In this document: in pieces, positions 1-35,922 of the stretch
Layout of the letters: every line of letters starts with the position of its first letter
How positions within the stretch are numbered: position 1 is the first letter of the stretch
From: Escherichia coli
GTDB taxonomy: Bacteria; Pseudomonadota; Gammaproteobacteria; Enterobacterales; Enterobacteriaceae
Reading direction: 5' to 3' (one strand)
Assembly: GCF_017348835.2 (NCBI RefSeq)
Contig: NZ_CP071375.1
Length of the DNA: 64,000 nucleotides
The notes under the pieces: model-generated
Told to the model about the DNA's origin: nothing
Seen by the model: the letters and a program-made list of their open reading frames with translations, nothing else
The model's database searches: none
Made by a program: the position numbers and the translations under genes

Positions 1-370
1 GCTGGATGCACTGGAGCAGGCGTTGTGGGCCCGTCGGCCGTCCGGCACAATCCATCACAGTGATAAAGGTTCTCAGTATGTATCGCTGGCCTACACGCAG
101 CGGCTTAAGGAAGCCGGATTACTGGCATCAACAGGGAGTACTGGCGACTCGTATGACAACGCGATGGCTGAGAGCATCAATGGTCTTTACAAAGCGGAGG
201 TAATACACCGTAAGAGCTGGAAAAACCGTGCAGAAGTGGAACTGGCCACACTAACGTGGGTGGACTGGTATAACAATCGACGATTGCTGGAAAGGCTGGG
301 CCATATTCCTCCGGCAGAAGCAGAAAAAGCTTATTATGCTTCCATCGGAAATAATGATCTGGCAGCCTGA
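1..370 (+). CDS. IS3-family transposase OrfB, C-terminal portion (5' end lies outside the window)
   Basis: Translation of ORF 23-370 shows IS3-family integrase-core C-terminal features; the reading frame is open to the window start. Confidence 0.85.
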   Translation, partial: LDALEQALWARRPSGTIHHSDKGSQYVSLAYTQRLKEAGLLASTGSTGDSYDNAMAESINGLYKAEVIHRKSWKNRAEVELATLTWVDWYNNRRLLERLGHIPPAEAEKAYYASIGNNDLAA

Positions 371-412
371 GTTCACAGATAAAACACTCTCCAGGAAACC
401 CGGGGCGGTTCA
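1..412 (+). mobile_element. Right-end portion of an IS3-family insertion sequence (IS629/IS1203-like); the window starts inside the element
   Basis: ORF 23-370 is the C-terminal part of an IS3-family OrfB transposase (YDNAMAESINGLYKAEV motif region). The sequence after its stop (c. 371-412) is the reverse complement of a TGAACCGCCCCGGGTTTCCTGGAGA-type terminal inverted repeat. Element identity below family level is from memory. Confidence 0.8.
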
Positions 413-1119
413 AAATGGTGAACTTGTCCTCGATAACAGACCACCACCCCTTCTGCACCTTTAGTCACCAACAGCATGGCGATCTCATACTCTTTTGCCA
501 GGGCGCATATATCCCGATCGTTCTGTGTTTTTCCACTGATAAGTCGCCATTCTTCTTCCGAGAGCTTGACGACATCCGCCAGTTGTAGCGCCTGCCGCAA
601 ACACAAGCGGAGCAAATGCTCGTCTTGCCATAGATCTTCACGAATATTGGGATCGAAGCTGACAAAACCTCCGGCATGCCGGATCGCCGTCATCGCAGTA
701 AATGCGCTGGTACGCGAAGGCTCGGCAGACAACGCAATTGAACAGAGATGTAACCATTCGCCATGTCGCCAGCAGGGCAAGTCTGTCGTCTCTAAAAAAA
801 GATCGGCACTGGGGCGAACCATAAACGTAAATGAACGTTCCCCTTGATCGTTCAGATCGACAAGCACCGTGGATGTCCGGTGCCATTCATCTTGCTTCAG
901 ATACGTGATATCGACTCCCTCAGTTAGCAGAGTTCTTTGCATTAACGCACCAAAAGGATCATCACCGACCCGACCTATAAACCCACTTATTCCGCCTAAT
1001 CTGGCGATTCCCACCGCAACGTTAGCTGGCGCGCCGCCAGGACAAGGCAGTAGGCGCCCGTCTGATTCTGGCAAGAGATCTACTACCGCATCCCCTAAAA
1101 CCCATACTTTGGCTGACAT
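413..1119 (-). pseudogene. cscK: cscK fructokinase (PfkB family), 3'-truncated by the IS insertion
   Basis: ORF 373-1119 begins MSAKVWVLGDAVVDLLPE, the N-terminus of csc-regulon fructokinase. The native sequence ends after ...GQVHHF (about codon 235) and the remaining residues are read from IS sequence; the C-terminal PfkB DTTGAGD-type motif is missing. Confidence 0.8.
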
Positions 1120-1334
1120 TTTTTTCCCTTAAATTCATCTGACTTACGCATAGTGATAAACCTCTTTTTCGCAAAATCGTCATGGATTTACTAAAACATG
1201 CATATTCGATCACAAAATGTCATGGTTAACGTTAACATTTGTGATATTCATCGCATTTATGAAAGTAAGGGACTTTATTTTTATAAAAGTTAACGTTAAC
1301 AATTCACCAAATTTGCTTAACCAGGATGATTAAA
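1120..1334. promoter_or_regulatory. Divergent cscK / cscA control region with two identical 12-bp palindromes GTTAACGTTAAC (c. 1225-1236 and 1289-1300) and TGTGA-containing CRP-like sequence
   Basis: Two perfect copies of the palindrome GTTAACGTTAAC about 64 bp apart in an AT-rich divergent intergenic region next to a LacI-family repressor gene; candidate CscR operators. Confidence 0.55.
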
Positions 1335-2768
1335 ATGACGCAATCTCGATTGCATGCGGCGCAAAACGCACTAGCAAAACTTCATGAGCACCGGGGTAAC
1401 ACTTTCTATCCCCATTTTCACCTCGCGCCTCCTGCCGGGTGGATGAACGATCCAAACGGCCTGATCTGGTTTAACGATCGTTATCACGCGTTTTATCAAC
1501 ATCACCCGATGAGCGAACACTGGGGGCCAATGCACTGGGGACATGCCACCAGCGACGATATGATCCACTGGCAGCATGAGCCTATTGCGCTAGCGCCAGG
1601 AGACGATAATGACAAAGACGGGTGTTTTTCAGGTAGTGCTGTCGATGACAATGGTGTCCTCTCACTTATCTACACCGGACACGTCTGGCTCGATGGTGCA
1701 GGTAATGACGATGCAATTCGCGAAGTACAATGTCTGGCTACCAGTCGGGATGGTATTCATTTCGAGAAACAGGGTGTGATCCTCACTCCACCAGAAGGAA
1801 TCATGCACTTCCGCGATCCTAAAGTGTGGCGTGAAGCCGACTCATGGTGGATGGTAGTCGGGGCGAAAGACCCAGGCAACACGGGGCAGATCCTGCTTTA
1901 TCGCGGCAGTTCATTACGTGAATGGACTTTCGATCGCGTACTGGCCCACGCTGATGCGGGTGAAAGCTATATGTGGGAATGTCCGGACTTTTTCAGCCTT
2001 GGCGATCAGCATTATCTGATGTTTTCCCCGCAGGGAATGAATGCCGAGGGATACAGTTACCGAAATCGCTTTCAAAGTGGCGTAATACCCGGAATGTGGT
2101 CGCCAGGACGACTTTTTGCACAATCCGGGCATTTTACTGAACTTGATAACGGGCATGACTTTTATGCACCACAAAGCTTTGTAGCGAAGGATGGTCGGCG
2201 TATTGTTATCGGCTGGATGGATATGTGGGAATCGCCAATGCCCTCAAAACGTGAAGGCTGGGCAGGCTGCATGACGCTGGCGCGCGAGCTATCAGAGAGC
2301 AATGGCAAACTCCTACAACGCCCGGTACACGAAGCTGAGTCGTTACGCCAGCAGCATCAATCTATCTCTCCCCGCACAATCAGCAATAAATATGTTTTGC
2401 AGGAAAACGCGCAAGCAGTTGAGATTCAGTTGCAGTGGGCGCTGAAGAACAGTGATGCCGAACATTACGGATTACAGCTCGGCACTGGAATGCGGCTGTA
2501 TATTGATAACCAATCTGAGCGACTTGTTTTGTGGCGGTATTACCCACACGAGAATTTAGACGGCTACCGTAGTATTCCCCTCCCGCAGGGTGAGACGCTC
2601 GCCCTAAGGATATTTATCGATACATCATCCGTGGAAGTATTTATTAACGACGGGGAAGCGGTGATGAGTAGTCGAATCTATCCGCAGCCAGAAGAACGGG
2701 AACTGTCGCTTTATGCCTCCCACGGAGTGGCTGTGGTGCAACATGGAGCACTCTGGCAACTGGGTTAG
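1335..2768 (+). CDS. cscA: Sucrose-6-phosphate hydrolase / invertase (GH32)
   Basis: ORF 1326-2768. WMNDPNGL GH32 motif near the N-terminus. Start moved to the second ATG (MTQSRLH...) which has AGGA 8 nt upstream, giving 477 aa. Confidence 0.9.
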   Translation: MTQSRLHAAQNALAKLHEHRGNTFYPHFHLAPPAGWMNDPNGLIWFNDRYHAFYQHHPMSEHWGPMHWGHATSDDMIHWQHEPIALAPGDDNDKDGCFSGSAVDDNGVLSLIYTGHVWLDGAGNDDAIREVQCLATSRDGIHFEKQGVILTPPEGIMHFRDPKVWREADSWWMVVGAKDPGNTGQILLYRGSSLREWTFDRVLAHADAGESYMWECPDFFSLGDQHYLMFSPQGMNAEGYSYRNRFQSGVIPGMWSPGRLFAQSGHFTELDNGHDFYAPQSFVAKDGRRIVIGWMDMWESPMPSKREGWAGCMTLARELSESNGKLLQRPVHEAESLRQQHQSISPRTISNKYVLQENAQAVEIQLQWALKNSDAEHYGLQLGTGMRLYIDNQSERLVLWRYYPHENLDGYRSIPLPQGETLALRIFIDTSSVEVFINDGEAVMSSRIYPQPEERELSLYASHGVAVVQHGALWQLG

Positions 2769-3771: not shown

Positions 3772-4001
3772 ACCCAAGCCGTTTGTCGTAAAACGGGCAC
3801 TGTAGCAGAAACAGACGTCACTGGCGAGATCCAACGCCCTATCACCTGACACGGCAATACAATAAAAAATAACAATAATTCCCGGCCAATTGTCCCCAAT
3901 TCCGCCTCTGTTCTCGCCAACGAGTAACCATATAGGCAAGTAAGTAAAACATGCCAACTGGCATCGCCAACCTGGAGAAGAAAATATAAATATGGATCAT
4001 T

Positions 4002-4220
4002 GTGCTGCCGCTGTATCCCGACATCAGCCCGGAAATTATTGCGATTGCTATCGGTTCAGGTGCAATTGGCTGCACTATCGTTACGGACTCGCTTTTCTGG
4101 CTGGTGAAGCAATATTGCGGCGCTACGCTCAATGAAACATTTAAATACTATACGACAGCGACATTTATCGCTTCAGTCGTCGCTCTGGCGGGCACATTCC
4201 TGCTGTCATTTATCATCTAA
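4002..4220 (+). pseudogene. dsdX: 3' remnant of dsdX (D-serine/gluconate-family permease), C-terminal ~72 codons only
   Basis: ORF 4002-4220 encodes a hydrophobic C-terminal segment ending ...[12 protein letters not shown], immediately upstream of dsdA as in the dsdXA operon; no N-terminal part and no dsdC are present. Confidence 0.75.
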
Positions 4221-4237
4221 GCGCAAAGAGACGTACT

Positions 4238-5673: not shown

Positions 5674-7212
5674 TCACCCAACGCCTTTCGCTGTAAACGG
5701 CGGTTTCGCAAACCAAACCAAAACCGTAAGTAAGATAAAAGCAATAGCCGCCATACGGAAAATCTCATTTGCAGAAATAGAAAGTGACTGCTGGGTTATT
5801 TCATTATTAATTTCATTAAGAACTCCTGAAAGCGAACCATAGTATTTATCCATAATTTGTGACGATGAATTAAACACGGGGTTAAATTGATCGATGGTTG
5901 CTGTCAACTGACTATGGTGTAACGATTCGCGTCGTCCCCACAGCGTCATTGTCAACGACGTACCAACTGATCCTGACAAGGTACGAAAAAAATTACTCAT
6001 ACTCGAGGCATTGGCAAATTTATTATCTGGCAACCCTGAAAACGAAATCGTTGTTAAGGGTAAAAAGAAACAGGCAACGGCGAATCCCTGGAAAAACTGT
6101 GGCAAAATGATGCCTGTAAAATCAATCGTTGGCATAAATGTCACAGAACGCCAGTAATAGCAAACCGCATACATCAAAAAACTAAATGTCACTAACAACC
6201 GCATGTCTATTTTGTTGCCATAACGTCCTATCAAAGGTGAAATTAATAGTGGCATGATGCCGATGGGCGCATAAGCAAGCCCAGCCCAAATCGCATTATA
6301 CCCCATTGTTTCCTGGAGGAACTGCGGCATAAGGACTATCGCTCCAGAGTAAAATAAATACGCGCATGTGATACTCACAATACCAATGGTGAAATTACGG
6401 GACTTAAACAAACTGAGATCAAGAATCGGGTTCTCTGAGGTTGACTCCCAAATGACTAAAGAGATCAGAGAAATAACTGATACTACTGTTAATATTATTA
6501 TTGTACTCGAGTTGAACCAATCCAGATCGCGCCCTTTATCAAGCATAATTTGCAAGCCACCAACACCAAGCACTAACAGGGTCAGTCCTGGTAGATTCAT
6601 TTTGACCGGTGAAGTCTCAGTTTCTCTTCCTTTAAGTAAGGTTAAGCATAATGTCAGGACGATAACCCCCATAGGGACATTGATTAAAAATATCCAACCC
6701 CAGCTAAAGTTATCACAAATATAACCGCCCAATATCGGCCCACATATCGGAGCGATAATCACGGTCATTGACCATAATGCCAGAGCAAATGTTCTTTTTT
6801 CTGGTGGATAATTCCTTAATAATAAACTCTGTGACAGTGGAATTAACGGCCCTGCCATTAACCCCTGAACGACTCTAAAAAATATCAGCACATCAAGATT
6901 GGTCGATAAACTACACATTAAGGAAGACAGCGAAAAAAAAGTGACTGAAAGTAAAAATAACCTTAATTCGCCTATTCTTTGTGCCAGCCTGCCAGTAACA
7001 GGGATCGCAATGGCATTTGCTACGCCAAACGAGGTGATAACCCAGGTACCTTCGTCTGTTGATGCTCCCAGAAAGCCAGATATTGTCGGTATTGCGACGT
7101 TAGAAATAGTGGAATCCAACATTTGCATAAATGTCGCTAATGACAATGCAATAGTGACGCACCATAACGTCCCACCGGTTAATGGTGCCGGAGTTGATTT
7201 AGTGATTGCCAT
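5674..7212 (-). CDS. emrY: MFS multidrug efflux permease (EmrB paralogue)
   Basis: 512-aa polytopic membrane ORF; operon partner of emrK, with stop/start overlap at 7212. Confidence 0.93.
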   Translation of the reverse strand: MAITKSTPAPLTGGTLWCVTIALSLATFMQMLDSTISNVAIPTISGFLGASTDEGTWVITSFGVANAIAIPVTGRLAQRIGELRLFLLSVTFFSLSSLMCSLSTNLDVLIFFRVVQGLMAGPLIPLSQSLLLRNYPPEKRTFALALWSMTVIIAPICGPILGGYICDNFSWGWIFLINVPMGVIVLTLCLTLLKGRETETSPVKMNLPGLTLLVLGVGGLQIMLDKGRDLDWFNSSTIIILTVVSVISLISLVIWESTSENPILDLSLFKSRNFTIGIVSITCAYLFYSGAIVLMPQFLQETMGYNAIWAGLAYAPIGIMPLLISPLIGRYGNKIDMRLLVTFSFLMYAVCYYWRSVTFMPTIDFTGIILPQFFQGFAVACFFLPLTTISFSGLPDNKFANASSMSNFFRTLSGSVGTSLTMTLWGRRESLHHSQLTATIDQFNPVFNSSSQIMDKYYGSLSGVLNEINNEITQQSLSISANEIFRMAAIAFILLTVLVWFAKPPFTAKGVG

Positions 7213-15291: not shown

Positions 15292-16986
15292 TTAATTACC
15301 AGCGACTTGTTTTGGGTTCAGTTTGGTAATATGGCCACTTTCAGTTCCTGCTGCAGGGTCGATGACCATATTAATAATGGTCGGTTTGCGCGACTGAATA
15401 CCGGTGGTTAAAGCATGACGAAGTTCATCTGTCGTGGTGACGTTATAGCCAACGCCACGAAACGCATCCATTAATTTGTCATACCTTGCATGGTGCAACA
15501 GATCTGTTGGTGATGGTGCACCAGCGCCACTGAGATCAACACCGTCTCCTCTGTAGATGCCGCCATTATTAAAAATAACGATCGTTACCGGCAGGTTATA
15601 TCGACAAATCGTTTCAATTTCCATCCCACTGAAACCAAAAGCACTATCACCTTCAATGGCGACAACCGGAGAACCAGAAGTCACGCTAGCACCGATGGCA
15701 TAGCCCATACCGATGCCCATGACACCCCAGGTACCACAATCCAGACGACGACGTGGTTTATACATATCAATAATATTTCGTGCATTATCCAGGGTATTTG
15801 CCCCTTCATTAACTAAATAAATATCCTGGTTCTCGCGCAATACATCGCGCACAGCACTTAATGCATTAAAGTAATTTAATGGTTGGGTATCTGTACTTAA
15901 TTTTTCATGCATTTTTTGTGCATTTTGCTGCTTGTGGATATTTAAAATATCGCGCCATACCAGTGGAGTCGTAAATGTGTTTTGTTTCAGTTCTGCCAGC
16001 ATACCTTGCATACTGGATGCAATATCACCAACGACTGGCACAGCAATGGGGCGGTTGCTGTCAATTTCCTGCGGTTCAATATCCAGTTGAATAAACTGTG
16101 TATCTGCCGCCCATCCTTTTTTACCGTGTGCCAGTAACCAATTCAGTCGTGCACCAACAAGCATGACAACGTCAGCATTTGCCAGGGCAAACGAACGCGC
16201 AGCTGCCGCAGAAAGTGGATGCGTATCTTCGAGGATCCCTTTCGCCATAGACATTGGCAGGAATGGAATCTGGGCACTTTCAATAAATTCACGAAGCTGT
16301 TCATCAGCTTGTGAATACGCCGCGCCTTTGCCAAGGATAACTAATGGTCGTTCAGCTTTTGCTAAAAGCGAAATTGCGCTAGCGACTGACTTCGGGCATG
16401 GCAATAATGCTGGCGACGGATTTTCAACTTTTACAATCGTGGTTAACGCTTCGTCTTTTTCCATCGTCGCGGCCAGGACATTTGCTGGCAAATCAAGATA
16501 AACTCCGCCAGGGCGACCCGATATCGAGACCCGGATAGCGCGTGCCAATGCAATGCCAAGATCCTGCGGCTGATTAACGCGAAATGCTGCTTTGGCATAC
16601 GGTTTTGCCGCATTCATTTGGTCCAGCTCTTCATAATCACCTTGCTGTAGGTCGACGATCGCGCGGTCGCTGGAGCCGCTAATCATGATCATCGGAAAAC
16701 CATTTACCGTTGCGTTGGCCAATGCGGTCAAACCATTGAGGAATCCTGGCGCAGACACTGTCAGGCAGATCCCTGGTTTTTGGGTAAGAAAACCGCTTGC
16801 CGCAGCGGCATAGCCTGCCGACTGCTCATGACGAAAACCAATATAACGAATGCCTTCCGCCTGGGCATGGCGCGCCATATCCGTCACAGGAATACCTACA
16901 ACACCATAAATAGTGTCAATATTATTCTGTTTTAATGCTTCAACGATGATATGCATACCATCTGTCATTTGAAGTTGATCTGACAT
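15292..16986 (-). CDS. oxc: Oxalyl-CoA decarboxylase (ThDP-dependent)
   Basis: 564-aa ORF with ThDP-enzyme architecture. Confidence 0.93.
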   Translation of the reverse strand: MSDQLQMTDGMHIIVEALKQNNIDTIYGVVGIPVTDMARHAQAEGIRYIGFRHEQSAGYAAAASGFLTQKPGICLTVSAPGFLNGLTALANATVNGFPMIMISGSSDRAIVDLQQGDYEELDQMNAAKPYAKAAFRVNQPQDLGIALARAIRVSISGRPGGVYLDLPANVLAATMEKDEALTTIVKVENPSPALLPCPKSVASAISLLAKAERPLVILGKGAAYSQADEQLREFIESAQIPFLPMSMAKGILEDTHPLSAAAARSFALANADVVMLVGARLNWLLAHGKKGWAADTQFIQLDIEPQEIDSNRPIAVPVVGDIASSMQGMLAELKQNTFTTPLVWRDILNIHKQQNAQKMHEKLSTDTQPLNYFNALSAVRDVLRENQDIYLVNEGANTLDNARNIIDMYKPRRRLDCGTWGVMGIGMGYAIGASVTSGSPVVAIEGDSAFGFSGMEIETICRYNLPVTIVIFNNGGIYRGDGVDLSGAGAPSPTDLLHHARYDKLMDAFRGVGYNVTTTDELRHALTTGIQSRKPTIINMVIDPAAGTESGHITKLNPKQVAGN

Positions 16987-34665: not shown

Positions 34666-35922
34666 ATGCTCCATCCGCGAGCCAGAACCATGTTGTTATT
34701 ATCGCTCCCCGCCGTGGCAATTGGGATTGCGTCCAGTCTTATTCTGATTGTGGTGATGAAAATCGCCTCGGCATTACAGAATTTGCTCTGGCAACGACTG
34801 CCGGGAACTCTGGGGATAGCCCAGGATTCACCTCTCTGGATCATCGGTGTATTAACGTTAACGGGTATTGCAGTGGGGTTGGTTATCCGTTTCAGCCAGG
34901 GTCATGCCGGACCAGACCCCGCCTGTGAACCGCTGATCGGCGCACCGGTTCCGCCCTCTGCGCTACCAGGACTTATCGTAGCATTAATTCTCGGTCTTGC
35001 TGGCGGCGTCAGCCTGGGGCCGGAACATCCGATCATGACCGTCAATATCGCCCTTGCGGTTGCCATTGGCGCTCGTCTGTTACCGCGCGTCAACCGAATG
35101 GAGTGGACTATTTTAGCCTCTGCCGGAACCATCGGCGCGCTGTTTGGTACACCTGTTGCGGCGGCGTTGATATTTTCGCAAACCTTAAATGGCAGTAGTG
35201 AAGTTCCGCTATGGGATCGTCTTTTTGCGCCGTTAATGGCGGCAGCAGCTGGTGCACTTACTACCGGATTATTTTTCCATCCCCATTTTTCACTGCCCAT
35301 TGCGCATTACGGACAGATGGAAATGACCGATATTCTCAGCGGTGCAATTGTCGCGGCGATTGCCATCGCAGCAGGGATGGTCGCCGTATGGTGCTTACCA
35401 CGGTTGCACGCGATGATGCATCAAATGAAAAATCCGGTGCTCGTGCTGGGTATTGGCGGATTTATTCTCGGTATTCTGGGGGTTATTGGTGGACCAGTTT
35501 CGCTGTTTAAAGGACTGGATGAGATGCAGCAGATGGTGGCAAATCAGGCTTTCAGCACCAGCGATTACTTTTTACTGGCGGTGATTAAACTTACCGCCCT
35601 GGTCGTTGCTGCCGCCAGTGGCTTTCGCGGTGGACGAATTTTCCCGGCAGTGTTCGTCGGCGTGGCATTAGGGTTGATGCTGCATGAGCACGTCCCCGCC
35701 GTTCCAGCGGCAATAACCGTTTCCTGCGCTATTCTCGGCATCGTGCTGGTGGTAACACGCGATGGCTGGTTAAGTCTTTTTATGGCGGCAGTCGTTGTAC
35801 CCAATACCACATTGCTACCGCTGCTCTGTATCGTCATGCTTCCGGCATGGCTGTTATTAGCAGGTAAGCCGATGATGATGGTCAATCGTCCGAAGCAACA
35901 GCCACCCCACGATAACGTTTAA
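34666..35922 (+). CDS. yfeO: ClC-like ion channel family membrane protein
   Basis: 418-aa polytopic membrane ORF. Confidence 0.9.

Follow-up and report, generated by a model that had tools for sequence, protein, structure and literature searches.

Paired 12-bp palindromes in the csc control region of Escherichia coli: predicted CscR operators in a conserved module with CRP sites

The csc locus and its palindrome pair

The window—the whole 64-kb stretch of E. coli DNA that was analysed—begins inside an IS3-family element, the right end of which interrupts the fructokinase gene cscK (Table 1). The transposase end matches the NF033516 transpos_IS3 model (E 7.7e-34, profile positions 269-369 of 369), and the adjoining cscK fragment, which retains only the first ~240 codons, covers positions 2-239 of the 302 in NF006957 and scores below the cutoff of that model. 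In strain PE164, which is 100% identical, PGAP calls cscK “incomplete; missing C-terminus”, with an IS3 transposase adjoining. The preliminary description of this DNA had spoken of divergently transcribed cscK and cscA: the orientation of the two genes is as it said, but cscK is a pseudogene cut by the IS3-family element and not an intact gene. The same element cuts off cscB from its promoter in this strain. On the other side of the control region, cscA is followed by cscR, which lies 1.5 kb from the palindrome pair; proteins near-identical to CscR carry the Pfam domains PF00356, PF00532, and PF13377. The 246-bp control region itself is 100% identical to that of strain PE164. Of 5426 complete E. 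coli genomes, 2662 have it with an identity of at least 95%, in every case as part of the chromosome.

Table 1. Genes, predicted operators, and promoter features at the csc end of the window
Feature	Position	Strand	Basis
IS3-family element, right end, interrupting cscK	1-411	+	transposase C-terminus at 23-370
cscK (fructokinase), N-terminal fragment, pseudogene	412-1119	-	NF006957, E 3.5e-119
CRP-like site 2 (CRP2), weak, TGCATattcgaTCACA	1199-1214	.	3 mismatches in the window
O1, distal (cscK-side) predicted CscR operator core, GTTAACGTTAAC	1225-1236	.	exact match
CRP site 1 (CRP1), predicted, ATTTGTGATATTCATCGCATTT	1237-1258	.	1 mismatch to TGTGA-N6-TCACA
O2, proximal (cscA-side) predicted CscR operator core, GTTAACGTTAAC	1289-1300	.	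exact match
Candidate cscA -10 (TAACAA/AACAAT)	1297-1303	+	conservation; overlaps the right half of O2
cscA, sucrose hydrolase (GH32)	1335-2768	+	TIGR01322 scrB_fam, E 3.9e-143, above the curated cutoff; RefSeq cscA
cscR, LacI-family repressor, 331 aa	2776-3771	-	LacI-family models; RefSeq “sucrose operon repressor CscR”
dsdX remnant, dsdA, emrY	downstream of cscR		

The twin 12-bp palindromes that the preliminary description had placed at 1225-1300, about 64 bp apart, are exact copies of GTTAACGTTAAC, hereafter called O1 and O2, with start positions 64 bp apart and 52 bp in between. These are exactly two copies in the window, and no third exact copy exists in the 64 kb. The only copy with one mismatch, at 34851, which lies within a 418-aa open reading frame without any csc context, was taken as a chance occurrence. 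The 12-bp sequence is its own reverse complement and has the layout GTTAA-CG-TTAAC, a perfect even palindrome with CG at its centre; it can also be read as a tandem of the 6-bp palindrome GTTAAC. O2 ends 34 nt before the cscA ATG (1335), so that the centres of O2 and O1 are 40 bp and 104 bp upstream of this codon, respectively, and the distance from O1 to the cscK ATG (1119) is 105 nt.

How unusual is such a pair? Base composition predicts 0.004 exact copies of the sequence per 64 kb, and for the window taken alone the probability of two identical palindromes within 64 bp is ~3e-4. Perfect 12-bp palindromes as a class, on the other hand, are not enriched in the window (25 versus 19.6 +/- 4.2 in dinucleotide shuffles), and a duplicated palindrome appeared somewhere in 17 of 200 shuffles. 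The same window holds one such chance duplicate, TAACGATCGTTA, at 1472 and 15576. Because the number of palindromes is ordinary and chance duplicates occur, the statistics within the window are only moderately strong, and the decisive part is the comparison of sequences across species.

In the E. coli window, no csc-type operator with two or fewer mismatches was found 5′ of cscR (3772-4237), and there is therefore no sign of autoregulation in E. coli. The Klebsiella-type loci are different in this respect, as their operator pair lies between the regulator gene and the operon.

Conservation of the motif in loci with CscR relatives

A search at the protein level gave CscR relatives that are 52-79% identical, in many members of the Enterobacterales and in Orbaceae. 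Using a 25-sequence CscR alignment, we fetched 80 loci, one per species, each with a CscR relative at 52-96% identity and together amounting to 977 kb. These loci contain 93 exact copies of GTTAACGTTAAC, as compared to 0.063 expected, and at least one copy is present in 69 of the 80. All 93 copies are within csc promoter regions, with none elsewhere in the 977 kb. Moreover, in a comparison of the intergenic region of E. coli variants, a divergent E. coli, and C. amalonaticus, both palindromes are free of changes, and every substitution and indel falls outside them; in the present strain, two flank bases beside O1 differ (G1224 and T1219). The conservation in other csc loci, which had been proposed as a check on the operators, is thus borne out at both levels.

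When one mismatch is allowed, most of the loci have a pair. As located by tblastn with CscB, CscK, and CscA, the pair always directly precedes the GH32 hydrolase operon, and three gene orders occur. The first, cscR> <cscA [O O] cscK> cscB>, occurs in E. coli, C. amalonaticus, and Pluralibacter. The second, cscR> <cscA <MFS [O O], is found in Pectobacterium, Yersinia, Serratia, and Rahnella. The third, <cscA <MFS [O O] cscR>, characterizes Klebsiella oxytoca, Raoultella, Enterobacter, Erwinia, Pantoea, and Kosakonia, and in these Klebsiella-type loci the same paired motif stands directly 5′ of the regulator gene. The Providencia and Moellerella loci have a single site, so the pair is not obligatory. 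CscR-type loci in which a GH32 enzyme accompanies an MFS transporter that shares only 38-41% identity with CscB are widespread.

The spacing of the pairs is narrowly distributed. Among the 62 pairs from other species, the start-to-start distance is 64 bp in 41, 63 bp in seven, and 62 bp in two; the remaining values are 57 bp in eight (Gilliamella), 68-69 bp in three (Proteus), and 71 bp in one (Brenneria). Across species, the consensus widens to the 14-bp T-GTTAACGTTAAC-A, with weaker flanks beyond. In the Klebsiella/Enterobacter/Erwinia group, O2 has the form GTTAACGTTA(C/T)C.

The protein side is equally constant. The recognition-helix residues Val13, Ser14, Met16, Thr17, Ser19, and Arg20 of CscR are invariant in the 25 aligned sequences, down to 54% identity, and this invariant recognition helix matches the invariant operator. 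The motif tracks the cscR orthologues across more than ten genera and, at the level of sequence, is tied to CscR by a strong phylogenetic footprint.

CRP sites, module geometry, and the cscA promoter

The predicted 22-bp site CRP1 directly adjoins the O1 core. Its own core, TGTGA-N6-TCGCA (TGTGATATTCATCGCA; also written TGTGAtattcaTCGCA), spans 1240-1255 with its centre at 1247.5, and is 3 nt from O1. Matches of this grade number three in the 64 kb against 1.96 expected, which alone is not significant; the site recurs with zero to two mismatches in 51 of 63 modules from the surveyed loci. The second CRP-like site, CRP2, is weak in the window and near-consensus in Yersinia and Serratia. O1 lies between CRP1 and CRP2, whose centres are separated by 41 bp. 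A half-site-like TTAACA is conserved in the CRP1 spacer in most genera.

We aligned the 42 modules with 64-bp spacing without gaps and counted the gaps between the elements in all 63. CRP2 and O1 are separated by 10 nt in 52 of the 63 modules, and O1 and CRP1 by 3 nt in 51 of the 63 and by 4 nt in Gilliamella. The distance from CRP1 to O2 is 33 nt in 41 modules, 32 nt in seven, 31 nt in two, and 25 nt in nine, and the interval is barely conserved apart from a short CTTT. The most constant distance in the module is therefore that between O1 and CRP1, and not that between O1 and O2. The conserved unit is a rigid module of ~102 bp, composed of CRP2, 10 nt, O1, 3 nt, CRP1, 33 nt, and O2. Its spacing is near-constant in the Enterobacterales, with one shifted gap in the Orbaceae, regardless of the gene on the far side.

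Where does the cscA promoter lie within this module? A strict sigma-70 promoter scan of 1050-1400 returned no promoter, and the promoter elements were accordingly deduced from conservation. In a hexamer scan, the higher-scoring -10-like positions fall inside CRP1. TATAAA at 1282-1287 was dropped as a conserved -10, being non-conserved and TGCAAA in C. amalonaticus. The gene-nearest conserved -10-like hexamer, at 1297-1302, reads TAACAA in 21 of 41 modules, TACCAT in 13, and TATCAT in six. This candidate -10 is made up of the right half of O2 and the two positions that follow, and the bases right after O2 are conserved as CAAT or CCAT. In Klebsiella and Erwinia, O2 loses its symmetry exactly where the -10 improves, as GTTAACGTTA(C/T)C is followed by AT. 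If the conserved hexamer is the -10, then cscA transcription would start near 1309-1310, and CRP1 would be centred at about -61.5. A CRP site at -61.5 is in the classical class I position.

With the -10 in O2, at its right half, our placement departs from the published layout after Jahreis 2002. As described in PMC11251922, that layout has the -35 and -10 in the interval from O1 to O2, and O2 overlies the start site. Under either layout, the core promoter is covered by O2. The published -10 placement may need re-examination.

Predicted action of CscR and the alternatives

The operator pair itself was already described in 2002. In the account of Jahreis et al. (J Bacteriol 184:5307) contained in PMC11251922, a 12-bp inverted repeat, present twice in the cscA-cscK interval, is the putative CscR operator, one of the two repeats carries a derepressing up-mutation, and a Crp site is also described; PMC11251922 reports both a Crp-cAMP site and catabolite repression. 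A 2024 figure shows the operator repeats conserved in five species (PMC11251922). The operator mutation was recovered a second time, in E. coli W (PMC3938415). In that paper O1 is named the cscKB operator, and a cyaA mutant cannot use sucrose; Sabri 2013 (AEM 79:478), in what PMC3938415 relates of it, places two cAMP-Crp sites in the bidirectional promoter. In EHEC without cscR, cscA is up 58-fold, cscK 156-fold, and cscB 28-fold, and a cscAp-gfp fusion is higher in the EHEC cscR deletion strain (PMC7486766). A literature search for EMSA, footprint, or ChIP studies of CscR on these sequences found no report, and in the biosensor literature on enterobacterial CscR it yielded only a preprint on Pseudomonas protegens CscR, without details of the E. 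coli operators.

The form and location of the palindromes were compared with those of other LacI-family sites. Even palindromes with CG at the centre are a hallmark of this family, a central CG being seen for 1173 of 1303 LacI-family transcription factors surveyed, and the motifs are 16-22 nt long with conserved inverted repeats and mostly located 30-140 bp before the start codon (PMC4052901). The centres of O1 and O2 are both within this range upstream of the cscA ATG; at 12 bp, the perfect core falls short of the usual 16-22 nt. With the operator up-mutation and the derepression upon cscR deletion counted alongside the footprint, we consider it highly probable that the two palindromes are operators of the sucrose repressor CscR in a bidirectional cscA/cscKB control region. 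The proposal that they are candidate CscR operators is thereby upheld, by their co-occurrence with CscR, their CG-centred form, the invariant recognition helix, and the published genetics. As a finding it is correct and not new. The additions made here are modest: a footprint about ten times wider (~70 species), the CRP2-O1-CRP1-O2 geometry, and the possible re-placement of the -10.

How might CscR act on this module? One CscR dimer would occupy each 12-bp core (in most species T-GTTAACGTTAAC-A), with its two helix-turn-helix heads reading the GTTAA half-sites on either side of the central CG. CscR on O2 would block RNA polymerase at the cscA promoter, because O2 overlaps the -10-like hexamer and lies 34 nt before the ATG. 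CscR on O1 would repress the divergent cscKB promoter, and would probably also hinder the CRP-dependent activation from the CRP site 3 nt away. Sucrose or its product would then free CscR, and cAMP-CRP would be required for expression. Deduced parts of this scheme are the binding of a single dimer to each operator, the precise location of the promoter elements and of the transcript start, and the effect of O1 on CRP.

The closest known system is the csc regulon of E. coli EC3132 and W, with the same locus, the same two 12-bp repeats, and the same CRP sites; the regulatory DNA is alike, and the differences are that cscK is split here by the IS3-family element and that the two flank bases beside O1 are changed. 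The RegPrecise CscR regulog for Enterobacteriales (regulog 5497, reference KPN_03263), going by its entry in the supplement of Ravcheev et al. 2014 (PMC4052901), is a comparative-genomics motif for CscR-type sucrose-use regulators; it covers 3 of 12 genomes, as compared to the 80 species and the fixed CRP2-O1-CRP1-O2 geometry described here. ScrR of pUR400 and Klebsiella is another sucrose repressor of the LacI family, and its two short inverted repeats likewise bracket a promoter, that of scrY; the downstream repeat is on the start site and a CRP site is upstream (PMC11251922). ScrR nevertheless belongs to another orthologous group, as CscR matches the fructose/sucrose repressor model TIGR02417 with an E value of only 9e-12. 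The ScrR repeats are 14 bp long, have a different sequence, and adjoin the -35 and -10, and the inducers of ScrR are fructose and fructose-1-phosphate. The ScrR operators at scrY were reportedly described by Jahreis and Lengeler in 1993 and by Cowan et al. in 1991.

The presence of two operators raises the question of whether they are bridged. The preliminary description had pointed out that paired operators allow looping. In such a loop, a CscR tetramer or two interacting dimers would connect O1 and O2, with 64 bp keeping both on the same helix face. The 64-bp distance corresponds to ~6.1 helical turns, nine of the other-species pairs stay at 62-63 bp in addition to the 41 at 64 bp, and there are two perfect sites per promoter. 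LacI with O1/O2/O3 and GalR with OE/OI also use more than one operator per CRP-dependent promoter region, with operator spacings of 92 and 401 bp in lac and ~113 bp in gal. LacI, however, has a tetramerisation helix. CscR (331 aa) aligns to the LacI model NF007075 only to position 330 of 358, which is the C-terminus of CscR, and the tetramerisation helix is therefore absent; the Klebsiella homologue 6NDI (334 aa) is equally short. Furthermore, the spacings of 57, 68-69, and 71 bp are not whole turns away from 64 bp, and the phase would thus be broken in several lineages. The single site of Providencia also speaks against a loop, as do the co-operative spacings in the LacI family, which are typically 13, 22, and 32 bp (PMC4052901). 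Finally, the tightest distance is the 3 nt between O1 and CRP1, so the promoter architecture explains the spacing. The distance between O1 and O2 is constant because the CRP/promoter geometry is fixed; the 64-bp spacing reflects a rigid promoter module, and no LacI-type tetramer loop is implied. Looping is thus improbable and this part of the preliminary description is not supported, although by analogy with GalR a dimer-dimer interaction is possible.

The position of O1 beside CRP1 brings in another reading, in which CscR at O1 acts in a CytR-like manner, contacting or displacing CRP, so that repression would work mainly by cancelling its activation rather than by blocking polymerase. In the CytR-CRP complexes at the deoP2, cdd, and udp promoters, the site of the LacI-family repressor is between two CRP sites, and in more than 50 species O1 is similarly flanked by CRP-like sites at fixed distances, 10 nt on one side and 3 nt on the other. 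The 41 bp between the CRP centres around O1, the start of CRP1 directly after the O1 core, and the dependence of csc expression on cAMP (PMC3938415) are all consistent with such anti-activation. In contrast, the operators of CytR are weak and flexible and CytR needs contacts with CRP, whereas O1 is a perfect, high-information palindrome and CRP2 is degenerate in E. coli, with its three mismatches. The csc promoter also differs from the CytR promoters in having a second operator on the core promoter, which is enough for classical occlusion. The top NCBIfam match of CscR is to CytR, at 139 bits far below the cutoff of 436 bits, and is uninformative on function. We regard pure anti-activation as unlikely, and we give similarly little weight to a combined form, in which CscR at O1 would contact or compete with one or both CRP dimers while occlusion takes place at O2. 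The TTAACA in the CRP1 spacer and the -10-improving variants of O2 fit the CytR-like reading. If this reading is true, then TTAACA and the O2 variants could tune the competition between the repressor, CRP, and polymerase.

It is very unlikely that the palindromes serve another factor, such as Cra/FruR or a different LacI-family protein, or that they are HpaI-type duplicates without a regulatory role. A duplicated 12-bp palindrome is not rare by chance, as the shuffles of the window demonstrate, and the assignment to CscR is based on sequence and genetics. This explanation is nonetheless opposed by the persistence of the motif alongside cscR orthologues in more than ten genera with three gene orders, and by the large excess of exact copies, all of them in csc control regions. 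The deletion of cscR also derepresses both of the flanking transcription units (PMC7486766). Moreover, the half-site GTTAA-C differs at three positions from that of Cra. The consensus of the Cra half-site is TGAAA-C.

A role in the transcript, with the palindromes forming hairpins in the leader of cscA or cscK (an attenuator, a processing site, or a small RNA), is extremely improbable: O2 could be transcribed if the start lies 5′ of 1289, as the published annotation suggests, but a loopless 12-nt palindrome cannot make a stable hairpin, the leaders fold no better than shuffles (z 0.06 for 1280-1340 on the + strand and 0.58 for 1120-1245 on the - strand), the sole Rfam match reaches 14.7 bits against a gathering score of 60, a scan of 1050-1400 found no terminator-like site, and no pairing-preserving compensatory changes are seen, the sequence itself being invariant.

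Repression by CscR dimers at O1 and O2 is thus the preferred reading, and on this reading the CscR sites would set the sucrose threshold of the csc regulon. For industrial E. coli W on sucrose, the standard way to obtain growth at low sucrose is through mutations of the operator and of cscR. In EHEC, deletions can place the neighbouring dsdA under the cscA promoter, which CscR controls (PMC7486766). The wider footprint, which extends over ~70 species, upholds the assignment of the palindromes to CscR, and the module of CRP sites and operators explains their spacing without looping.

Geometry of the CRP/operator module

We compared the promoter regions of 80 loci with a CscR relative, one per species outside E. 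coli (L003-L082), with the csc control region of the window. The module comprises the weak CRP-like site CRP2, 10 nt, the predicted operator O1, 3 nt, the CRP site CRP1, 33 nt, and the second operator, O2 (window 1199-1300), and these distances are fixed in more than 50 species and under three gene orders. Its most rigid element is the 3-nt gap between O1 and CRP1. Variation is usually free in CRP-site spacers. The 6-nt spacer of CRP1 (equivalent to window 1245-1250) is TTAACA in 35 of the 41 modules outside E. coli (L005-L082) and thereby includes the operator half-site TTAAC, whereas the E. coli spacer is TATTCA or TTATCA.

Operator placement in other genera

In the Klebsiella-type loci (L040, L042 and L049-L082, from Klebsiella, Raoultella, Enterobacter, Erwinia, Pantoea and Kosakonia), the operator pair separates the regulator gene, which it precedes by about 150-215 bp, from the divergent MFS-GH32 operon, and this placement would allow autoregulation of the CscR-like regulator. 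The proximal operator in this group is asymmetric: it reads GTTAACGTTA(C/T)C, and with the next two bases, AT, this makes a better -10-like sequence (TACCAT or TATCAT). The Gilliamella loci (L041-L061) carry a pair at 57-bp spacing upstream of cscA, and additionally two overlapping sites with a 14-bp offset (TTTAACGTTAACATGTTAATGTTAAC, about 5820-5855) between cscB and cscR. Upstream of E. coli cscR, no csc-type operator was found at up to two mismatches (window 3772-4237). Next come a dsdX remnant and an intact dsdA; in EHEC, deletions at this place can bring dsdA under the CscR-controlled cscA promoter (PMC7486766).

State of the csc region in the window strain

The base immediately left of O1, at position 1224, is G in the window and A in all six other sequences of a seven-sequence alignment, and at position 1219 the window shares T only with an O157 strain, the remaining five having C. 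E. coli PE164, whose control region is 100% identical, has the window bases at both positions. Since an IS3-family element splits cscK, the cscKB operon of the window strain is probably non-functional, with its control region intact. The same IS3/cscK arrangement is annotated in PE164, where cscB is intact past the IS.

The window holds a second perfect 12-bp palindrome in two copies, TAACGATCGTTA; this duplication is consistent with chance, as duplicates arise in 17 of 200 shuffles. The operator-like match ATTAACGTTAAC is probably also due to chance.

Features of the csc region and other palindromic matches in the window
Feature	Position	Remark
IS3-family element, end part	1-411	splits cscK; window start falls within the element
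cscK part left by the element	412-1119	
TAACGATCGTTA, first copy	1472-1483	within cscA
TAACGATCGTTA, second copy	15576-15587	14 kb off
ATTAACGTTAAC	34851-34862	1 mismatch to the operator; inside a 418-aa ORF (34666..35922)

Spread of csc-like loci

In Serratia, Yersinia, Rahnella, Klebsiella oxytoca, Raoultella, Erwinia and Pantoea, it is common to find loci (L006-L082) that pair a CscR-like regulator with a GH32 hydrolase and with an MFS transporter of only 38-41% identity to CscB. Such loci, for which sucrose is a possible substrate, are spread more widely than has been reported for csc (PMC11251922).
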